From Spongiibacteraceae bacterium (GTDB lineage: Bacteria > Pseudomonadota > Gammaproteobacteria > Pseudomonadales > CAMLJR01): a stretch of DNA of 64,000 nt. Shown piece after piece: positions 1,241 through 11,772 of this stretch. A model generated the notes under the pieces. That model was given only the letters and a program-made list of their open reading frames with translations. It did not search any database and was not told the origin of the DNA. The position numbers were made by a program, and so were the translations under genes. Each line of letters begins with the position of its first letter. Positions within the stretch are counted from its first letter, which is position 1. Location of the stretch: contig JASGHU010000001.1 in NCBI GenBank assembly GCA_047602265.1, forward strand, positions 1,154,346-1,218,345, in the 5' to 3' direction.

Positions 1241-3292
1241 TCACGGCACAAATTTTTTCTTCTTATCGACATGATCGCGTAACTTCTGCGCCAGCTCCTC
1301 GAAACGATGCTGAAGTGCATAGTCGATCGCGGTCCTGCCATTTTTATCGCGGCGCGATGCGTCGGCGCCGGCATTCAGCAATGCCGCAACCGCTTTACTT
1401 GATCCGCTTGAGGCGGCCAGCATCAGCGCGGTCTCGCTGCGCGCGTTGCGGTGTTCGATATCGGCTTTGGCGGCGAGTAAGCGATCGATAATTCCCACCT
1501 GTCCATTGCGTGCCGCCAATAGCAGCGGGGTGTTGCCATCGCGTGTCGGTTCATCGATTTTTGCGCCACTGCGAATAAGTAGCGCGACAACCTCGTCATT
1601 GTCGCGGCTGGAAGCGATGGCGAGTGGCGTTGAATTATCATGATCGGCCAGATCCGGCGTTGCATGTTCGCGCAGTAATAGCGAAACGATTTCTGCTTTA
1701 TTGGTTGAAGCGGCGAGCCAAAGCGCTGATCGTCCCGCGCTATCGCGTTTATCAATCGGTGCGCCCGCAGCGATCAATTGTTGTGTCGCACTGACGAATC
1801 CTCGCTGAGCACACCATTGCAACGCGGTGCCATTAGCGAAGGTGGTATTGGCGAAGGCTGTATCGATGGCATTACTTTTTGTTAGTGGTGCGTTTGTCCG
1901 TAGTGCCTTTCGCAGCAGCTCGCTGACAATTCTTTCATCGCTGTTTTTTGCCGCGTAGGCGAGCAGGTCGGAGCGTGCTCCAGTTGGATCGATAAGCGCG
2001 CCATGCTGCATCAACATCTCAACCATGGTTGCATTGTTGCGCTCGACCGCGAACCACAATGCAGTTTTTTTCTCGGGGTCGATGGCATTGGGATTAGCGC
2101 CGGCCTGCAATAGCAGCGCGATGATTTTGTTTTCGCCCTGATGCGCGGCGCGCAGCAGCGGTGTGAAATGATCGGGATCGATGCTATCGATATTACTGCC
2201 TTGTTTTATCAGCGTATCGACCAGTGTTGCATCGCCGCGCCATGCTGCGATATTGAGTGCAGGCCAGTTGCTGTAGCGCGCATCGCCGCGCTGTGCGAGT
2301 TCGGTAATCTGTGTCGATGATGTTGCGCTGCTTCCGCTATCGACAGTTTTTTCAGTGCGCTTAATGCCCGCTGCAGCGAGCAATTGCACCAGGGCGTTGT
2401 TGCCGCTTCGCTTGGCAAGATCAAGTGCATTATCACCGGATAAATTACGCGCGTCTTTGGCGATCGGCTGCGCGAGCAGCTTTTTGCAAGCGTTGAGATT
2501 GCCGCGCGCGGCGGCGATGAGAAATGCAGTGTTGCCATTTCTATCGACGGCATGCATGTCGGCCCCATGCTGTATCAACGCATCGAGTATCTGCGGATTA
2601 TCGTTGTTCGCTGCCAGCAGAAGTGCAGTGTCGCCGCTGTGATTTTTGCTGTTAATAGCGGCGCCTTTGGTCAGCAGCAGCTCGACCGCTTCCGCATTGT
2701 TATTGCCAGCCGCCAGCATCAGCGCAGTATTGCCTTCGCTGTCGCTGGTATCGATAGCGATTGCACGCGTTAATAAAATTTTAAGTTGAGCGTTGTCGCC
2801 CTTGCGCGCCGCGTGCAAAAAAATCTCGCTGTTATCGCCGGCACTTGGATTGCCTGTCTGTGAAAAACCGGCAATTTTTTGTTGTGCTGGAGCGCTGCCA
2901 TTGGCCGCAGCCCGGCGTATCCATGCCAACGCCTGTGCGCTATCGGCTTGAGTGCCGAGTCCTTTTTCGTACATCGTCGCCAGCAGGTATTGTGCTCCTG
3001 CATGATCTTGCGCTGCGGCGCGCTGGTACCATTGCAAGGCTTGCGTGTAATCGACGGCAACACCTAATCCCATCCGATACAGCGTGCCGAGTTGGTATTG
3101 CGCTTCTGCGTTGCCCTGCGCAGCGGCCTCCTGAAATTTTTGCTGGGCAGCGACGTAATTGTTTTCCAGCAGCAAATCTTTTGCATCGTCAACGATGTCG
3201 GCGCGCGCGACACAGCAACCGCTGAAAATGTACGCGATGATGAGTGCGCAGCAGCGAAAACTAGGCGACGCCGAATTTGGTTTCGATCGCAA
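1241..3292 (-). CDS. Sel1-repeat plus ankyrin-repeat lipoprotein (about 683 aa)
   Basis: Three Sel1-like repeats are seen (AEAQYQLGTLYRMGLGV..., AGAQYLLATMYEKGLG...). More than 10 ankyrin repeats follow (GNTALMLAA..N.E.V..LL..GA). I prefer an in-frame TTG at 3292, preceded by GGAGA, which gives MRSKPNSASPSFRCCALIIAYIFSG|C, a lipoprotein signal with lipobox FSGC. The ORF-track start at 3343 is also TTG. The gene overlaps the upstream gene end by 32 nt. Confidence 0.8.
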   Translation of the reverse strand: MRSKPNSASPSFRCCALIIAYIFSGCCVARADIVDDAKDLLLENNYVAAQQKFQEAAAQGNAEAQYQLGTLYRMGLGVAVDYTQALQWYQRAAAQDHAGAQYLLATMYEKGLGTQADSAQALAWIRRAAANGSAPAQQKIAGFSQTGNPSAGDNSEIFLHAARKGDNAQLKILLTRAIAIDTSDSEGNTALMLAAGNNNAEAVELLLTKGAAINSKNHSGDTALLLAANNDNPQILDALIQHGADMHAVDRNGNTAFLIAAARGNLNACKKLLAQPIAKDARNLSGDNALDLAKRSGNNALVQLLAAAGIKRTEKTVDSGSSATSSTQITELAQRGDARYSNWPALNIAAWRGDATLVDTLIKQGSNIDSIDPDHFTPLLRAAHQGENKIIALLLQAGANPNAIDPEKKTALWFAVERNNATMVEMLMQHGALIDPTGARSDLLAYAAKNSDERIVSELLRKALRTNAPLTKSNAIDTAFANTTFANGTALQWCAQRGFVSATQQLIAAGAPIDKRDSAGRSALWLAASTNKAEIVSLLLREHATPDLADHDNSTPLAIASSRDNDEVVALLIRSGAKIDEPTRDGNTPLLLAARNGQVGIIDRLLAAKADIEHRNARSETALMLAASSGSSKAVAALLNAGADASRRDKNGRTAIDYALQHRFEELAQKLRDHVDKKKKFVP

Positions 3293-4568
3293 TGCCGATT
3301 TTCTCCAGCAATTGAGTGGGCAGAATACCGCCGGCGCAAACAATCACGGCATCGTTAGTCAGTTCGATGGTTCGATCATTGATGACGATGGCCACTTTGT
3401 TGGCGGAAATTGATTGCACCTGCGATGTGAGCAGCACGCGCAGTTTTTTGCTCGCGGTCATGGCTTCGAGATTTTCGCGATTTTTCGCTTTGACACGCGC
3501 GAACGCATTGCCGCGATAGGAAAGCGTCACCTGCGTGTCGGGTTGCTCGGCGATGCTCACAGCGGCTTCGATGGCGCTATCGCCACCGCCGACGACGAGC
3601 ACATGCTGGCCGCGATATTGTTCGGGGTCGATAAGCCGGTACACGACTTTAGCAAGCTCTTCGCCCGGCACACCCAATTGGCGCGGTGTGCCGCGTCGAC
3701 CCAGACACAGTAAAACTGTGCGTGCCGAGTAATTATTTTTGCTGGTGATAACGCGAAATTCACTATCGGCTTTTTCGATGTGATCGAGACGTTCGCCAAA
3801 CTGAATTTTCAGTTGCTGCTGGGACACAATGTTTTCCCAGAATTCCAATAGTTTTTCTTTCGTCGTCTCGCGAAAAGTGACTTCGCCGACAATCGGCAAT
3901 TTCGCCGGTGCAGTCATCACGATTTTCTGGCGAGGAAAATGGGCGACGGTTCCGCCCAGCGAATCCTGATCGATGATGGTGAATTTAAGTTGTGCTTCTT
4001 TCGCAGCGAGCGCTGCGGCAATGCCGGCGGGACCTGCACCGACGATGACGAGATCGAGCGCGCAGCGATGGCGTTCACGCAGCAATTGTTTGATCGATGC
4101 AACCGCTTGCGCGCCTTGTTGCACCGCGTTGCGAATCAAACCCATACCGCCGAGTTCGCCGGCGATAAAAATGCCCGGCACGTTGGTTTCGAAATTCGGT
4201 TTGATCTGCGGAATATCAACGCCGCGCGTTTCGGTGCCGAATACCAGCGTGATTGCATGGGTCGGGCAGGCTGTTGCACAGGCGCCATGGCCGACGCAAT
4301 TGGCTGCGGCGATCAACTCGGCCTTGTTGTGAATGAGGCCGAGCACATTGTGTTCCGGACAGGCCGACACGCAGGTGCCGCATCCCAGGCAGCGATTTGG
4401 ATCGATCACCGGGTGCAGGCTGACCGGTTCATGCATGCCATCGGCGATTGATGTCGCGCGGGCTTCAAGATTCAGCTGACTGCGCCGGTGCTGTAACCAC
4501 ACATAAATCGACACAATCGCCAGCATCGGCGCGGCGTAGTACAGGCCGATGATTAACGCATCATTCAT
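3261..4568 (-). CDS. Membrane-anchored 2x[Fe-S] ferredoxin domain fused to an FAD/NAD(P)-binding (thioredoxin-reductase-fold) oxidoreductase
   Basis: There is an N-terminal TM helix followed by HRRSQ. The first cluster motif is CLGCGTCVSACP and the second is CVGHGACATACP. Two Rossmann motifs are present (VIVGAGPAGIAAA and VLVVGGGDSAIEAA). No redox-active CxxC disulfide is seen. Confidence 0.85.
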   Translation of the reverse strand: MNDALIIGLYYAAPMLAIVSIYVWLQHRRSQLNLEARATSIADGMHEPVSLHPVIDPNRCLGCGTCVSACPEHNVLGLIHNKAELIAAANCVGHGACATACPTHAITLVFGTETRGVDIPQIKPNFETNVPGIFIAGELGGMGLIRNAVQQGAQAVASIKQLLRERHRCALDLVIVGAGPAGIAAALAAKEAQLKFTIIDQDSLGGTVAHFPRQKIVMTAPAKLPIVGEVTFRETTKEKLLEFWENIVSQQQLKIQFGERLDHIEKADSEFRVITSKNNYSARTVLLCLGRRGTPRQLGVPGEELAKVVYRLIDPEQYRGQHVLVVGGGDSAIEAAVSIAEQPDTQVTLSYRGNAFARVKAKNRENLEAMTASKKLRVLLTSQVQSISANKVAIVINDRTIELTNDAVIVCAGGILPTQLLEKIGIAIETKFGVA

Positions 4569-4825
4569 CGCTTAACGGTTCTCGAACAAGCCATTCACAT
4601 CGCACGCCCATGAAGTTGCGGTGAGCGCAACGTATGCGATTGCTTCCCAGCCTAGCAAAGCCAAGTTTTAGTGCGTGCGCCGCACAGCGGGAATGTGATA
4701 CAGCGCAAAACCCGCGCTAGTTGTAAGGTCATCTTAAGATTCGCTTAAGGTTGCATCACTACGATTTGGCGGCGACCGTTCGGGACAAGCGCTCGTAGAA
4801 AACAGATAACGCACGGAGCGAGGGG

Positions 4826-5365
4826 GTGCGAAATCCGGCGTCGGTAAATTCAAGAGCGGCTGCGAGCATGCCCATGCAAAATAAAAATCTGATCACCGGA
4901 GTCGCGGTGGTCGTCTTCATCATTGCCGCAGTTGCGGCGGGTCGATATGCGGCACAGCCGCGCGTTGAAATTACGTCTCCAGTTGCACAAGCGCTTGCGC
5001 CAACGGCGTTATCGGTTCCGCAAAGTGCCTCACCGCAAATGTCTCCTGTTCAAGGCAAGGTCGATGCGGTCGATGTGATGGTCGAGCGATTGCGCACACG
5101 CCTCGAGCGCGAACCTAACGATGTCGATGGCTGGGTGTTGTTAGGTCGCTCCTATCATTATCTCGAACGCTGGGAAGACGCTAAAGCTGCGTTCGCGAAA
5201 GCGCGCGAGCTCGGATACAAAGGCGATGGCGATATGCCGACGTCTTCGATAACCGACGATCAGAGCGGCGGCCGCGATGCCGGCAATGCAGAGCCTGTTT
5301 TTCACGACATCGGTCGCGTCGGCAGCGATAAGGGTTCTTCCACACAAACTGGAATTGCGCCGTGA
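4826..5365 (+). CDS. Membrane-anchored TPR protein resembling the C-terminal part of CcmI/CycH/NrfG
   Basis: There is one TM helix (ITGVAVVVFIIAAVAAG). A TPR segment follows (VERLRTRLEREPNDVDGWVLLGRSYHYLERWEDAKAAFAKARELG), as in cytochrome c maturation TPR proteins. GTG at 4826 is preceded by GGAG; an alternative ATG lies at 4868. Confidence 0.6.
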   Translation: MRNPASVNSRAAASMPMQNKNLITGVAVVVFIIAAVAAGRYAAQPRVEITSPVAQALAPTALSVPQSASPQMSPVQGKVDAVDVMVERLRTRLEREPNDVDGWVLLGRSYHYLERWEDAKAAFAKARELGYKGDGDMPTSSITDDQSGGRDAGNAEPVFHDIGRVGSDKGSSTQTGIAP

Positions 5366-6216
5366 ACGCAGCGACTGCTGCGCCGGCGCGCGCAAAAAAT
5401 AAAACGCAATACGCCGATCGCAGCAGCACCATTTTATTTTCGCTGACGGTGATTGCCGCGCTGATCTACGGCTGGCAACACCGCGGCGAATACTACCTCA
5501 CGGCGGAGCACGGCATCGGCTATGCGCTTGGCATCATCGGCGGCTCGATGATGTTGCTGTTGCTGCTCTATCCATTGCGCAAACGGCTGCGTTTTATGGA
5601 GCGTTGGGCGCCGCTGCGTTTTTGGTTTCGCACGCACATGATTCTGGGTGTGATCGGTCCGCTGTGCATTCTGTACCACTGCAATTTTCAGCTCGGTGCC
5701 GCCAATAGCAATATCGCATTGCTGTGCATGGGGTTGATGGTCGGCAGCGGGCTCATCGGTCGCTTTATTTACGGAAAAATTCACTACGGTCTCTACGGTC
5801 AGCGCGCAACGCTGCAGGAATTGCAAAAACAAATGCAGGCTTCGGAGCAGGCGCTGCGCAATCAGCGCGATGCCAGTCTCGGTGACGCGGCGTTTGAACG
5901 TTTGCGCGCGCTGGAAATTTTTGCGCTGCAGCGGCGCAGTTTTTTCGGCAATATCGCGCGCCTTCTAACCATCGGCCGTCGTACCCGTGCCGAACACAAA
6001 TGGTTTGTGGCCCATCTCGGCAAGCTTGCCGTGCACAGCGAAATCAAGCACGAGGTCCTCGCGCAAATTCACACCTTTCTCGCCGTGATCAAGCGCATCG
6101 CCGGTATCAGCTTTTACGAACGTTTATTTTCATTGTGGCATGTGCTGCACATGCCGATATTTTTCATGCTGGTCGTCACCGGGCTGATACATGTCTATGC
6201 CGTGCACCTGTATTGA
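5362..6216 (+). CDS. His-rich polytopic inner-membrane protein (about 5 TM helices plus a coiled-coil loop), family unknown
   Basis: Hydrophobic helices occur at about aa 24-38, 52-73, 88-106, 118-137 and 258-281. His residues lie in TM3 (HMILGVIGPLCILYH) and TM5 (WHVLHMPIFFMLVVTGLIHVYAVH). The GTG start overlaps the upstream stop (GTGA). Confidence 0.7.
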   Translation: MNAATAAPARAKNKTQYADRSSTILFSLTVIAALIYGWQHRGEYYLTAEHGIGYALGIIGGSMMLLLLLYPLRKRLRFMERWAPLRFWFRTHMILGVIGPLCILYHCNFQLGAANSNIALLCMGLMVGSGLIGRFIYGKIHYGLYGQRATLQELQKQMQASEQALRNQRDASLGDAAFERLRALEIFALQRRSFFGNIARLLTIGRRTRAEHKWFVAHLGKLAVHSEIKHEVLAQIHTFLAVIKRIAGISFYERLFSLWHVLHMPIFFMLVVTGLIHVYAVHLY

Positions 6217-7804
6217 TGGCGGTCGTTGGCTGCGCGAAATCGGCGTATTTTTTCTTGTCGTATTGATGATGTTATTCGCTCGCCCTGTGAATGCAGAAAA
6301 CTTCAATTTTAAAAGCCTGTTGATGCCGGGAAAGCTGGTGGAGGGACACGCCAAATTGGAAAGCGATTGCAATCAATGCCACGCGTCTTTTGCCAAGCAG
6401 GCACAGGATCAGCTCTGTGTTCAGTGCCACGATGTCATCGCGGCCGATATTGCCAATAAAAAAGGTTTTCACGGCAAGCTCGATCATCAAACCGCATTGA
6501 CGTGCAAGCAATGTCACACCGATCACCGCGGTCGCGATGCGGATATCGTCGGCCTCGATCGCGATACGTTTAATCACGCCGCGACCGATTTCAATCTTGA
6601 AGGTAAGCACGCCGGTCTCGCCTGCGCGAGCTGCCATGAGCAGGGGAAAAAATTCCGTGACGCCAGCAGCGAATGTTTTGCCTGTCATCGCAAAGACGAT
6701 CGCCATAAAGGCGCGCTGGGAAAACAGTGCGCAACGTGCCATAGCCCGGTGGCGTGGAAGCAGACGCGTTTCGACCACGGCAAAACGCAATTCGCGCTCA
6801 AGGGTGGGCACCAGCAAGTCAATTGTGCAGCGTGTCATCCCGGCGAGAGCTACAAAAATACCCCGAAAGCCTGTGTGTCGTGCCATGCGCTGAACGATGT
6901 GCATCGCGGTGCCAACGGCGATAAATGTCAGCAGTGTCACAACGAAAGCGGTTGGAAAAAAACCACGTTCGATCATGCGCGCGACACCCATTTCGCACTG
7001 CGCGGTGCGCATGCAACAACGAATTGCAGTGGCTGTCATCGCGAAGGCAAGTTTGAGGTGAAATTAAAAACCGAGTGCGTCGCCTGCCATCGCACCGACG
7101 ATATTCATAAAGGAAAAAATGGCGAGCGCTGCGATTCGTGCCACAACGAATCGTCCTGGTCACAGAAAAAATTCGATCACAACACCGCGACGAAATTCAT
7201 GCTCAAAGGCAAGCATGCCGATGTTGCGTGCAACAGTTGTCATCGCGGCAATGTGCACGACGCATTACCGCAGACGTGTATCGGCTGCCATCGACTCGAT
7301 GATGTACACAAAGGGCAGCAGGGCGAAACCTGCGATAAATGCCACAACGAAAACGGCTGGAAAAATAAAGTCGCTTTCGATCACAGCAAAACCCAATTTC
7401 CGCTGCAGGGTTTGCATGCCGTAGTGCCGTGCGAAGGATGTCATATCAGTGCCGCGTTTAAAGGCACGCCGACGCGTTGTATCGGCTGCCACAAAAAAGA
7501 TGACAAGCACAAAGGTTCGTTCGGCGATAAATGCGATTCGTGCCACACCAGCAAGGGCTGGAAACGTGTGTTGTTCGATCACAACAAAAATACGCAATTT
7601 CCGCTCACGGGTGCCCATGCAAAAACGCAATGCACTGATTGTCATCGCGAGCCAGCGGACAAAGTGAAGTTGTCACGCGATTGTTTCAGTTGCCACGATG
7701 CCGATGACACGCACGACGGACGCTTCGGCCGTTATTGCGAGCGTTGCCACAACACGACGGATTTTAAAAACGTGGATTTCAAGCAAATGAATTTGCTCCA
7801 TTAG
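6191..7804 (+). CDS. 21-heme c-type cytochrome made of seven tandem c7-type triheme modules
   Basis: I counted 21 CXXCH motifs in the translation. The repeating module is FDH..F.L.G.H...C..CH / C..CH..DD.H.G / C..CH. A signal peptide is present (IGVFFLVVLMMLFARPVNA|EN). The start (6191 or 6197) overlaps the upstream gene by about 26 nt. Confidence 0.9.
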   Translation: MSMPCTCIDGGRWLREIGVFFLVVLMMLFARPVNAENFNFKSLLMPGKLVEGHAKLESDCNQCHASFAKQAQDQLCVQCHDVIAADIANKKGFHGKLDHQTALTCKQCHTDHRGRDADIVGLDRDTFNHAATDFNLEGKHAGLACASCHEQGKKFRDASSECFACHRKDDRHKGALGKQCATCHSPVAWKQTRFDHGKTQFALKGGHQQVNCAACHPGESYKNTPKACVSCHALNDVHRGANGDKCQQCHNESGWKKTTFDHARDTHFALRGAHATTNCSGCHREGKFEVKLKTECVACHRTDDIHKGKNGERCDSCHNESSWSQKKFDHNTATKFMLKGKHADVACNSCHRGNVHDALPQTCIGCHRLDDVHKGQQGETCDKCHNENGWKNKVAFDHSKTQFPLQGLHAVVPCEGCHISAAFKGTPTRCIGCHKKDDKHKGSFGDKCDSCHTSKGWKRVLFDHNKNTQFPLTGAHAKTQCTDCHREPADKVKLSRDCFSCHDADDTHDGRFGRYCERCHNTTDFKNVDFKQMNLLH

Positions 7805-7825
7805 GATGAGCGAGGCTTCGCTGCC

Positions 7826-9555
7826 ATGAACGATACATACACGACATTCGCACACATGATTCGATTCGTTCGCTATTGCTTGCTGGTGTTGTGCTGTTGT
7901 GGCGCGGCAAGCGCGGCGGATTTCGATCACACCAAAACCGGATTTGCGCTGGAGGGGCCGCACGCACATATCGCCTGCGAAAGTTGTCACGTGCGCGGAC
8001 AATTCAAAGGTACACCGCGCAATTGTGCGGGTTGTCATACGCCGGGAACGATGGTTTCAGCATCGGCAAAATCGCCGAAGCACATTAATTCGACGGCCGA
8101 TTGCGCAGCGTGTCATCGCAGTGTGACGAGTTGGGATTCTGTCACGCGCGTCGATCACACGGCCGTGCTCGGTAATTGCGGCAGTTGTCATAACAATCGT
8201 CTGGTCGCAGGTAAACCGGCGGGACATATTCAGTCGGGCGACGATTGCAAATCCTGTCATAACACCAGTTTGTGGAGCGCTGCAGGTTTTGATCACACCG
8301 GCATCACCGGCAATTGTGTGAGCTGTCATAACGGTCAAACCGCGCCGGGTAAATCGGCGGATCACGTCACCGCGAGCAATACTTGCGAGAGTTGTCATTC
8401 AACGCGCGCATGGTTGCCGGCGCGTTTCGATCACGCGGGTATTTCGAGTAATTGCGTGAGCTGCCATAACGGCACGCGCTTCACCGGAAAATCGAGCAGC
8501 CATATCGCGTCGTCAAATCTTTGCGAGTCTTGTCACGGCACTGCGATGTGGGTGCCGGCAACGCATGTCGATCACACACAGGTGACGGGTTCGTGCGCGA
8601 GTTGCCATAACGGCACGATTACGACGGGAAAAAATCCGACGCACATCGCGAGCACCAATGCGTGCGAAGCGTGTCATTCGACGAGTGTGTGGAGTCCGGT
8701 GACGCGTGTCGATCACGCGCAAGTGACCGGTTCGTGTTCGAGTTGCCATAACGGCGTCAAAGCCACGGGAAAAAATCCAACACACATCGCCAGCACGAAT
8801 ACTTGTCAGGCGTGTCACTCGGTGAGCGTGTGGAATCCTGCAACGCGTGTCGATCACACGCAGGTGACGGGTTCGTGCGCGAGTTGCCACAACGGCACCA
8901 CGGCAATTGGAAAATCGCCGAGCCATATCGCCACCAATTCGAGTTGCGATTTATGCCATACCACGAGTGCGTGGTCGCCGACGCATTTCGATCACAGCGG
9001 CGTTAGCGGAACGTGCGCGAGTTGTCACAACGGCACCACCGCGACGGGAAAATCACCGAGCCATATCAGTACGACATCGAATTGCGATTTATGTCATACC
9101 ACGAGCGCGTGGTCGCCAACGCATTTCAATCACAGCGGTGTCACGGGTACGTGCGCGAGTTGCCATAACGGCACCACCGCCACGGGAAAAAGCCCGACCC
9201 ATATTGCGAGCACCAATGCGTGCGAAGCGTGTCACTCGACCGCAGGTTGGAGTCCGGCAACACGCGTCGATCACACGCAGGTCACCGGTTCGTGTTCGAG
9301 TTGCCACAACGGCACCACGGCAACTGGTAAATCGCTCACGCATCCGGGCACCACAAATACCTGCGATGCCTGCCACAGCACCACTGCGTGGTCGCCGCTG
9401 CGGCGCATGGATCACACGCAATTATTGTCGACCACGCGCTGCGATAGCTGTCACTTGAACGATAAGCCGCGCGATCATCCAAGCACGGGCGGCAAAGATT
9501 GCGGCGCGTCGGGTTGTCACGGCACCGCGCACAATTACACGTCGTGGAGCAGGTA

Positions 9556-9556
<1 letters not shown>
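7826..9556 (+). CDS. 22-heme (plus one CX4CH site) c-type cytochrome: an N-terminal c7-like triheme followed by ten tandem di-heme units
   Basis: I counted 22 CXXCH motifs plus CGASGCH near the C-terminus. The unit motif is (R/H)(V/F)DH..V.G.C.SCHNG..A.GK...HI.....C..CH....W.P. A signal peptide is present (MIRFVRYCLLVLCCCGAASA|AD). Confidence 0.9.
8144..9454 (+). repeat. Intragenic tandem repeat array, period 138-141 bp (46-47 aa, two heme sites per unit), about 10 units
   Basis: The unit anchor residue, Asp in nine units and Asn at 435, falls at residues 110, 156, 202, 249, 296, 343, 389, 435, 482 and 529. The adjacent units 8909-9046 and 9047-9184 match at about 118 of 138 positions by manual alignment. 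Confidence 0.85.

Positions 9557-11770
<2,214 letters not shown>

Positions 11771-11772
<2 letters not shown>

Follow-up and report, generated by a model that had tools for sequence, protein, structure and literature searches.

A candidate NAD(P)H-driven entry module in a PCC3-type porin-cytochrome cluster of a Spongiibacteraceae bacterium

The DNA analysed here is a 64,000-nucleotide stretch of a Spongiibacteraceae metagenome-assembled genome (assembly GCA_047602265.1, contig JASGHU010000001.1, positions 1,154,346 to 1,218,345 of the forward strand), further referred to as the window. It contains a seven-gene unit at positions 1241-11772, which is best explained as a complete porin-cytochrome cluster of the PCC3 type with its inner-membrane end, where a membrane-anchored ferredoxin-flavoprotein (FLAV) is encoded divergently from a five-helix inner-membrane protein (IMP). 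An initial annotation, made from the letters of the window, had confined the module to 3261-6216. This extent is too small, as an ankyrin-repeat partner and a CcmI-like TPR partner were overlooked. Its interpretation, i.e., an electron route from NAD(P)H via flavin, Fe-S clusters and membrane-embedded b hemes to a periplasmic heme wire, is partly supported: the heme-b idea was already published, and the NAD(P)H route has strong genomic support. The unit comprises the following features (in window positions):

1241..3343, minus strand: Sel1 and ankyrin-repeat protein (ANK), open reading frame (ORF) of 700 aa; Pfam Ank_2 (1.9e-74) and Sel1 (2e-16)
3261..4568, minus strand: membrane-anchored ferredoxin-flavoprotein FLAV, 435 aa; Pfam, PDB and Foldseek matches
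3573..3590, minus strand: NAD(P)H-binding GGGDSA of FLAV (aa 327-332); invariant columns
4023..4040, minus strand: FAD-binding GxGxxG of FLAV, GAGPAG (aa 177-182); invariant columns and Rossmann-domain matches
4263..4298, minus strand: Fe-S motif 2 of FLAV, CVGHGACATACP (aa 91-102), with His at the second Cys position; conservation in homologues
4356..4391, minus strand: Fe-S motif 1 of FLAV, CLGCGTCVSACP (aa 60-71); conservation in homologues
4497..4556, minus strand: N-terminal transmembrane (TM) anchor of FLAV (~aa 5-24), followed by QHRRSQ; helix 3-42 in the AlphaFold2 (AF2) model and positive-inside bias
4569..4825, no strand: intergenic region of 257 bp between the divergent FLAV-ANK and TPR-IMP-cytochrome operons
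4826..5365, plus strand: TM-anchored TPR protein, CcmI/CycH/NrfG-like, 179-aa ORF; Pfam match below the cut-off
5362..6216, plus strand: PCC3 inner-membrane protein IMP, 284 aa, five TM helices, putative di-heme cytochrome b; published motifs
6191..7804, plus strand: periplasmic multiheme cytochrome (MHC) MHC1, 537 aa, 21 CxxCH; heme count, Pfam Cytochrome_C7 and c3
7826..9556, plus strand: putative extracellular multiheme cytochrome MHC2, 576 aa, 22 CxxCH and one Cx4CH
9499..11772, plus strand: putative outer-membrane porin, up to 757 aa, start uncertain; position in the cluster

The inner-membrane protein of the cluster

The 284-aa protein, which the initial annotation considered unusual, is, judging from its motifs, the already published IMP of PCC3 with its bis-His motifs and proposed di-heme b, and is not new (He et al., 2017). 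The PCC3 IMPs were described as proteins of ~300 aa with five TM helices, a WX3HX13H motif on both TM3 and TM5, and an SGXXG motif on TM4. The same authors likened this pattern to the ferric-reductase domain and cytochrome b and already proposed that two b hemes are bound (He et al., 2017; PMC5566968). The window protein has the expected size and number of helices; they are located at residues 20-39, 51-66, 85-106, 114-140 and 226-283 in the AF2 model (pLDDT 85.4). It also contains the motifs W88x3H92x13H106 on TM3, W259x3H263x13H277 on TM5 and S129GxxG133 on TM4. Hence, the five helices and the paired His residues of the earlier description stand, except that the spacing on TM3 is H-x13-H and not x14.

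Conservation of the TM His residues had been put forward as a check. H92, H106, H263 and H277 are each His in all 151 IMP cluster representatives, which share 34-52% identity with the window protein. S129 and G130 are equally kept in 151/151, and G133 in 150/151. The topology places the pair H92/H263 near the cytoplasmic face and the pair H106/H277 near the periplasmic face, where they constitute putative heme sites. Three further His residues are widely, if less strictly, conserved, i.e., H260 (147/151), H282 (145/151) and H141 (141/151). These residues are encoded at 6139-6141, 6205-6207 and 5782-5784, respectively; two of them belong to the cytoplasmic face and the third to the periplasmic end. 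Conservation is poor in the helical insert on the cytoplasmic side (~aa 150-255).

IMP has no Pfam or NCBIfam family match. Among 82 homologues, sub-threshold matches were obtained to DUF4405 in 16 (best E 0.017) and to Ni_hydr_CYTB in 6 (best E 0.031), which leaves IMP outside the di-heme cytochrome b clan as defined by these profiles. PF01794, the Pfam family of ferric reductases, NOX, FRE and MsrQ, gave no match to IMP even at E<=10 and was not among the top families for the 82 homologues. A profile search with IMP against the sequences in the PDB yielded noise only. FLAV and IMP are both 100% identical to NCBI entries; for IMP, the protein collection contains an identical sequence (P0121), and an exact look-up in the contig index gave no match. 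In the NCBI database, two IMP homologues of 287-331 aa, one from Paraglaciecola sp. MB-3u-78 (P0221, WP_101198113.1) and the other from a Hyphomicrobium metagenome-assembled genome (P0418), are called 'pyridine nucleotide-disulfide oxidoreductase' without containing such a domain; this name was probably carried over from the adjoining FLAV gene.

The remainder of the cluster is consistent with PCC3 as well. The IMP, a 21-heme MHC, a 22-heme MHC and a 757-aa outer-membrane candidate follow each other in the published order, in the window as well as in related loci. PCC3 clusters of Gallionellaceae, Leptothrix and many Proteobacteria share with the window cluster the IMP motifs, the gene order, the 21-heme MHC, ~26 aa per heme and a repetitive outer cytochrome rich in T, S, A and G (He et al., 2017; PMC5566968). 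In the literature, however, PCC3 consists of four genes with a proposed quinone link and a proposed function in Fe(II) oxidation, whereas the window adds FLAV, ANK and a CcmI-like TPR protein, and cytoplasmic NAD(P)H, rather than quinol, appears to serve as the input. In the genomics of iron oxidisers, PCC3 serves to mark a possible Fe(II) oxidase.

The ferredoxin-flavoprotein FLAV

As initially proposed, FLAV starts with a TM helix followed by basic residues, and most of the protein is predicted to be cytoplasmic. The helix extends over residues 3-42 in the AF2 model, and 99 of 118 homologues show a TM-like segment. The median number of Lys and Arg is 4 in the 12 residues past the helix and 0 ahead of it, and this positive-inside bias locates the bulk of FLAV in the cytoplasm. 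Within the helix, Y11 is invariant in an alignment of 58 sequences, which suggests that the helix packs in a specific manner and is not a mere tether.

The helix is followed by a ferredoxin domain with Fer4-type Pfam matches at residues 52-108. The ORF translation reads C60LGC63GTC66VSAC70P in the first motif, which is canonical and present at residues 60-71 as described before, and C91VGH94GAC97ATAC101P in the second. The location of the latter at nt 4263-4298, with His at the position of the second Cys, was confirmed by coordinate arithmetic. With this substitution, FLAV departs from the 2x[4Fe-4S] ferredoxins, which contain two CxxCxxCxxxCP motifs, and the Fer4 profiles match anyway.

The C-terminal part of FLAV (260 residues), matched by Pyr_redox_3 and Pyr_redox_2 at residues 172-429, contains the two Rossmann folds noted earlier, and the absence of a redox-active CxxC also holds: the single CxxC of the protein lies within the first ferredoxin motif, and the remaining Cys residues are at positions 169, 288 and 411. 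In the FAD motif, G177, G179, P180 and G182 are invariant in the 58-sequence alignment. The GGGDSA region resembles the NADPH site of thioredoxin reductases (TrxR), which reads GGGNSA...HRRxxxR; R352, F356, R358 and K360, located after GGGDSA, are all invariant.

The closest solved relatives of FLAV are the YpdA/Bdr protein 7a7b (2e-26, residues 172-434), TrxR-type ferredoxin-NADP+ reductases (FNRs) and TrxRs; matches in the PDB and with Foldseek include 2zbw, 3ab1, 3lzw and 5ygq. No solved structure spans the whole architecture. The score against the YpdA/Bdr family TIGR04018 (177.4 bits, cut-off 339.9) reveals a related fold and not membership. Neither is FLAV a member of the thioredoxin reductases of TIGR01292 (90 bits, cut-off 343), as it contains no CxxC outside the ferredoxin motif. 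A function as thiol-disulfide reductase was rejected in view of this lack of a redox CxxC and of the scores, which reach neither the TrxR nor the YpdA cut-off. TrxR-type FNRs are characterized by two Rossmann folds for FAD and NAD(P)H and no CxxC, and this is the fold that FLAV has. It shares this fold with the TrxR-type FNRs and YpdA/Bdr proteins of known structure (2zbw, 3ab1, 3lzw, 7a7b), from which it differs by a fused ferredoxin domain, a TM anchor and an apparent shift of the C-terminal FAD segment. Based on these sequence features, the best description of FLAV is that of a predicted TrxR-type ferredoxin:NAD(P) reductase that is tethered to the membrane and carries its own ferredoxin as a fused domain.

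The apparent shift concerns residues 123-140, whose counterpart in a local alignment is the FAD segment at the C-terminus of YpdA (residues 277-294); this match is not significant by itself. The segment TNVPGIFIAGELGG, in region 123-170 of FLAV, precedes the first GxGxxG, although its counterpart in YpdA is C-terminal. The alignment suggests that the TrxR/YpdA-like fold is circularly permuted in FLAV, so that the C-terminal FAD segment would now come before the first Rossmann motif. The family is large: over 8000 matches were obtained at E<=1e-20, a threshold that also lets in generic TrxR-like proteins; almost all listed relatives have a length of ~430-460 aa.

Conservation of the CxxHxxC motif was a second check put forward earlier. 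The residue is His in 119/119 FLAV homologues with 58-100% identity and also in the Bacteroidota orthologue from Emticicia (50% identity), and it is embedded in a sequence, G93, H94, G95 and A96, that is invariant in the alignments. The second position of motif 1 is occupied by Cys in 117 of the 119 homologues and by Ser in the other two as well as in Emticicia. Thus, in these two homologues and in the Emticicia protein (L081, 9590-10912), motif 1 reads CIGSGACVAACP, and both motifs are without Cys at the second position.

The initial annotation assigned a His-ligated [4Fe-4S] cluster to motif 2, by analogy with the distal cluster of [NiFe]-hydrogenase. A [3Fe-4S] cluster is judged likelier, from the ferredoxins that have the same motif. 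The CxxHxxC(x)nCP ferredoxins of Mycobacterium and Rhodopseudomonas contain [3Fe-4S] under aerobic and anaerobic conditions, and their clusters did not incorporate another iron to become [4Fe-4S] (Child et al., 2018; PMC6237146). The potential of such ferredoxins is relatively positive, with -31 mV for the Fdx of M. tuberculosis (PMC6237146). The motif of these proteins is identical to that in FLAV, but they are small, contain a single cluster and serve P450s, whereas in FLAV the motif forms the latter half of a domain with two clusters, which is fused to a reductase. Since the characterized ferredoxins of this type hold [3Fe-4S], a 7Fe-type domain ([4Fe-4S] plus [3Fe-4S]) is the better and, by analogy, the more likely prediction for FLAV. 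Such a domain would also arrange the centers between NAD(P)H and heme b in a downhill order.

Replacement of the second Cys in such motifs leads to [3Fe-4S] in NarH and in DmsB variants, and a high-potential [3Fe-4S] adjoins a membrane heme b or a quinone site in NarH and SdhB. The alternative, i.e., a [4Fe-4S] cluster with His94 as the fourth ligand, would leave the remainder of the explanation unchanged. His-ligated [4Fe-4S] clusters do exist at protein-protein electron exits (discussed in PMC6237146), and the strict invariance of His94 in its invariant GHGA context speaks for a ligand role. This alternative is nevertheless doubtful: all characterized ferredoxins with the exact CxxHxxC(x)nCP motif were isolated as [3Fe-4S] without uptake of a fourth iron, the NarH and DmsB replacements point in the same direction, and some FLAV orthologues have Ser at the equivalent position of motif 1.

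Linkage of FLAV and IMP and the proposed electron path

The genomic context was analysed in two sets of loci. For the first, one genome per species was scanned with IMP, and of 564 relatives the best 80 were kept; the second contains the best 80 metagenome loci found with FLAV. FLAV is encoded within 10 kb of IMP in 70 of the 80 IMP-picked loci, i.e., in 70 of 72 informative ones, as eight of the ten FLAV-negative loci have less than 6 kb of upstream sequence. The two genes are divergent and at most 2 kb apart in 58 loci and divergent at a larger distance in four; FLAV, ANK and IMP follow each other on one strand in three, and FLAV is located 3' of the porin gene in five. The clearest exception is a Nitrospinaceae locus (L063; CP070799.1, 8065-12937), where ANK, IMP and MHC are encoded in this order on a single strand and FLAV is missing from the adjoining 10 kb on both sides. 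The reverse test gave the same picture, with IMP present in 49 of the 50 FLAV-picked metagenome loci with enough flanking sequence. The gammaproteobacterial form of the module was also found in Ca. Tenderia and in the isolate Paraglaciecola sp. MB-3u-78.

Among 72,556 plasmids, IMP and FLAV each match one record, and this record is the same for both: the 100-kb plasmid pEMTOL02 of Emticicia oligotrophica, where the genes lie side by side in the order ccsA, IMP, FLAV, a 23-heme MHC and a 40-heme MHC (L081; NC_018749.1, 78197-89995). The Bacteroidota loci of Emticicia, Aquirufa and Saprospiraceae (L081, L162, L163) show the order IMP, FLAV, MHC, MHC with a gap of 1-4 nt between IMP and FLAV, which is a single nucleotide in Aquirufa and Saprospiraceae. 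A ResB-CcsA gene is located directly 5' of IMP in Emticicia and Aquirufa; there is none at the Saprospiraceae locus. In Emticicia and Aquirufa, genes for a ~540-aa protein and a GW-domain protein follow the second MHC gene. This arrangement is kept in a large Bacteroidota clade; the Emticicia IMP has 7331 matches. We know of no report of extracellular electron transfer in Emticicia, Aquirufa or Saprospiraceae. The reciprocal linkage, which has survived the rearrangement of the operon between phyla at 28% IMP identity, is strong evidence that FLAV and IMP share a function. The module is available in cultured isolates, viz., Paraglaciecola sp. MB-3u-78, E. oligotrophica DSM 17448 (on the plasmid) and an Aquirufa isolate.

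Given this tight linkage across phyla, the most economical reading is a path from NAD(P)H via FAD, Fe-S clusters and heme b to the multiheme wire. We consider it probable, at roughly 55%, that the PCC3 wire is fed by a NOX-like transmembrane reductase that is driven by NAD(P)H and split between FLAV and IMP. From the motifs and their conservation, the topology bias, the domain folds of FLAV and the linkage described above, we infer cofactor content, contact between FLAV and IMP, path, direction and final acceptor as follows. Cytoplasmic NAD(P)H would reduce the FAD of the membrane-tethered, TrxR-type FLAV, whose ferredoxin domain would relay the electrons through a first cluster, [4Fe-4S], and a second, most likely [3Fe-4S] of raised potential. 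The electrons would then pass to the cytoplasmic-side heme b of IMP (H92/H263), to the periplasmic-side heme b (H106/H277), and via the 21-heme MHC1 and the porin to the 22-heme MHC2. The flow would be outward and independent of quinones, and the membrane potential would assist it rather than being conserved. Counted in favor of this path is the invariance of the cofactor sites, viz., the nucleotide-binding motif residues (FAD and NAD(P)H) and Fe-S ligands of FLAV and the four heme-type His residues of IMP. Also, no gene for a quinol dehydrogenase is conserved in the cluster in the related, Bacteroidota, Ca. Tenderia and Paraglaciecola loci.

The proposed direction draws on standard bioenergetics, by which the membrane potential would oppose an inward electron that has to reach NAD(P)+ (-320 mV) and would help an outward one; Fe(II)-driven reduction of NAD(P)+ through a plain wire would therefore be unfeasible. 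In transcripts of S. lithotrophicus ES-1, the PCC3 genes were down-regulated on Fe(II), which fits poorly with a role as Fe(II) oxidase and fits outward flow. Outward flow also fits those hosts that we take to be aerobic heterotrophs, i.e., Spongiibacteraceae, Paraglaciecola, Emticicia, Aquirufa and Saprospiraceae. In the searchable PCC3 literature up to mid-2026, where four genes and a quinone link are described, no mention of FLAV or ANK was found, and an NAD(P)H entry route for PCC3 appears to be unreported.

The proposed logic is known from other systems. In NOX and ferric reductases (FRDs) and in MsrQ with Fre, electrons pass from cytoplasmic NAD(P)H to a flavin and then via two stacked b hemes, bound by His pairs on TM3 and TM5, to the far side of the membrane; in the case of MsrQ and Fre, the flavoprotein is a separate polypeptide. 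However, IMP is without a PF01794 match and has five TM helices instead of the six of NOX/FRD, and where NOX/FRD has an FNR fold, FLAV has a TrxR/YpdA fold with two Fe-S clusters between flavin and heme. The acceptors differ as well, i.e., O2, Fe(III) or MsrP in the known systems and, as proposed, a multiheme cytochrome here. Cytoplasmic Fe-S proteins meet a membrane cytochrome b also in Hmc/Tmc, NarGHI and [NiFe]-hydrogenase, with a [3Fe-4S] or His-ligated cluster beside heme b. In the Hmc/Tmc complexes of sulfate reducers, a periplasmic multiheme cytochrome is likewise connected via cytochrome b to cytoplasmic Fe-S proteins, and quinone is not obligatory. Yet, the subunits of these systems are not homologous to those discussed here, Hmc works inward, and an outer-membrane porin and an extracellular cytochrome are not part of these systems. 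The parts list of the module recurs in an independently described, putative porin-cytochrome operon of marine Alphaproteobacteria, ptdABCDEFG, where genes for a porin and multiheme cytochromes are combined with those for an FAD/NAD(P) oxidoreductase, a 2x[4Fe-4S] protein and a TM protein resembling ferric reductases (bioRxiv 10.1101/2023.11.21.568154). In a comparison by parts list, the flavoprotein and the Fe-S protein are separate in Ptd and the cytochromes contain 4-10 hemes, whereas in the window these proteins are fused and membrane-anchored and the cytochromes contain 21-22 hemes.

Several points weigh against the NAD(P)H-driven wire. Every component is known here from its sequence. A Foldseek search of the PDB with the AF2 model of IMP gave nothing significant and, with neither this structural match nor a Pfam heme-b family above threshold, it is the His pattern from which heme binding by IMP is predicted. 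The cytoplasmic insert of IMP (aa 150-255) could hinder docking as easily as mediate it, and no IMP-FLAV fusion protein was found among 150 cluster representatives; the long IMP representatives that were checked have an N-terminal extension, which is TPR wherever a domain is recognizable. Both samples, each limited to the best 80 loci, are biased toward relatives of the window proteins, and the PCC3 clusters of Gallionellaceae and Leptothrix, the basis of the literature, fall outside the linkage sample; for the clusters of S. lithotrophicus ES-1 (Slit_0867-0870, Slit_1446-1449), a literature search for adjoining locus tags gave no match. Two informative loci, the Nitrospinaceae locus and L018, have no FLAV within reach. 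Finally, genes for cytochrome maturation are located beside IMP in both phyla, and the acceptor could be a maturation step and not the wire.

In the published model of PCC3, IMP acts as a di-heme cytochrome b that reacts with quinones and thereby connects the wire with the quinone pool, e.g., for Fe(II) oxidation; FLAV would then be an accessory with a regulatory, repair or minor input function. This model draws on the analogy of IMP with the cytochrome b of bc1 and [NiFe]-hydrogenase (He et al., 2017; PMC5566968), and it accords with the weak likeness of individual IMP sequences to Ni_hydr_CYTB and DUF4405 and with the IMP genes at L063 and L018 that have no FLAV nearby. We consider it improbable. 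The FLAV-IMP linkage is near-universal and reciprocal and survives rearrangement between phyla, and an accessory FLAV would not be expected to keep all its FAD, NAD(P)H and Fe-S residues invariant next to a conserved TM anchor. No quinone site could be read from the sequence of IMP. The down-regulation of PCC3 on Fe(II) in ES-1 also argues against this model.

The odds are equally poor for a second alternative, in which the reductase formed by FLAV and IMP serves cytochrome maturation and, analogous to the heme b of CcmF, keeps exported heme or the CxxCH thiols of apocytochromes reduced during the attachment of 20-85 hemes. It shares the NAD(P)H-driven FLAV-IMP reductase with the path proposed above, and the acceptor alone differs. 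In Pseudomonadota, IMP is encoded beside the CcmI/CycH-like TPR protein, in Bacteroidota the end of the ResB-CcsA fusion gene overlaps the start of IMP, and TPR-IMP fusion proteins occur. In contrast, IMP has no match to a WWD or heme-handling domain, FLAV has no thiol-active CxxC, and the universal adjacency of IMP and MHC1, with an overlap of 26 nt in the window, fits a stoichiometric complex. Moreover, dedicated maturation genes are often found next to unusual cytochromes while being outside the redox path, as in the case of NrfEFG and the dedicated CcsA isoenzymes of Wolinella. Very improbable is a wire that runs inward from an extracellular donor (a cathode, reduced sulfur or iron minerals) for direct NAD(P)+ reduction in autotrophs: many hosts are labelled as sulfur-oxidizing or autotrophic lineages (Chromatiaceae, Thiohalomonadales, Thiotrichaceae, Ca. 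Tenderia, Nitrospinaceae) and TrxR-type FNRs work reversibly, but the membrane potential opposes inward flow, Fe(II) and most natural donors are far too oxidizing for NAD(P)+ (-320 mV), a [3Fe-4S] near -30 mV would be an uphill trap, and the module is also found in lineages that we take to be aerobic heterotrophs.

If the NAD(P)H-driven path is true, the cluster would be one of the rare instances in Gram-negative bacteria where extracellular electron transfer avoids both the quinone pool and the quinol dehydrogenases of the CymA/NapC type. The conserved NAD(P)H flavoprotein partner shifts the predicted direction, energetics and ecological meaning of PCC3 from harvest to export of electrons. 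More tentatively, and at less than even odds, PCC3 at large may be a quinone-independent export machine, powered by NAD(P)H and aided by the membrane potential, in which a split NOX analogue is joined directly to a wire of at least 40 hemes; it would occur in thousands of Pseudomonadota and Bacteroidota, among them presumed aerobic heterotrophs without known extracellular electron transfer.

Accessory proteins, cytochromes and surrounding sequences

The ANK gene overlaps the 3' end of the FLAV gene. Its likely start is TTG 3292 (codon 18), with a GGAG-like sequence ahead of it, and the deduced N-terminus resembles a signal peptide (..ALIIAYIFSGCCVARA|DIV). Since its homologues have clear Sec signal peptides, ANK is probably periplasmic. 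In all 59 loci that contain both genes, ANK is located directly 3' of FLAV on the same strand, with the start of the match at -79 to +334 nt from the end of FLAV. ANK is absent from some FLAV loci and from the Bacteroidota operons and is, therefore, an accessory; perhaps, it is a scaffold or chaperone for the long periplasmic 21-heme cytochrome.

The TPR protein probably starts at ATG 4868 or 4874, and its stop codon overlaps the start of IMP (GTGA). It matches Pfam TPR_CcmH_CycH at 1.7e-9, which is below the cut-off, and NrfG at 1.2e-3; its Paraglaciecola orthologue (L165, 9126-9995) matches both TPR_CcmH_CycH and Ig_CycH. By this likeness, it is a probable apocytochrome chaperone. In some organisms, TPR is fused to the N-terminus of IMP (P0312, P0303). 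If the TPR domain is periplasmic, it would sit awkwardly in such a fusion relative to the predicted N-in topology of IMP.

The sequences around these genes offer few further clues. The neighbors beyond 1241-11772 are unrelated by domain content and include UPF0114, a GNAT acetyltransferase, OmpA, an aldo-keto reductase and a Kdo transferase. A sequence scan of the intergenic region 4569-4825 revealed no sigma-70-like promoter and no boxes for FNR, Fur, ArcA or IscR; there is a single half-quality match to CRP.

MHC1, whose gene overlaps that of IMP by 26 nt, has a signal peptide, 25.6 aa per heme and a weak match to HmcA. In related loci, its homologue is encoded directly 3' of IMP. Its number of 21 hemes is the published median for the periplasmic cytochrome of PCC3 (He et al., 2017; PMC5566968). 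The ORF at 9499-11772 has no Pfam match and was assigned as porin from its position in the cluster; a porin homologue is located 3' of MHC2 in most loci that are long enough to show such a gene. A perfect 13-copy hexanucleotide repeat, CGACAC, at 10262-10339 on the plus strand encodes a (PT)n linker that joins the N-terminal region to the presumed barrel. MHC2 has 26.2 aa per heme, is rich in T, S, A and G, and is internally repeated: tandem repeats of 138-141 nt (5.5 copies with 72-84% matches) are found at 8555-9318 on the plus strand of its gene. Each unit contains two CxxCH motifs, which suggests that the number of hemes in MHC2 changes through duplication of units.

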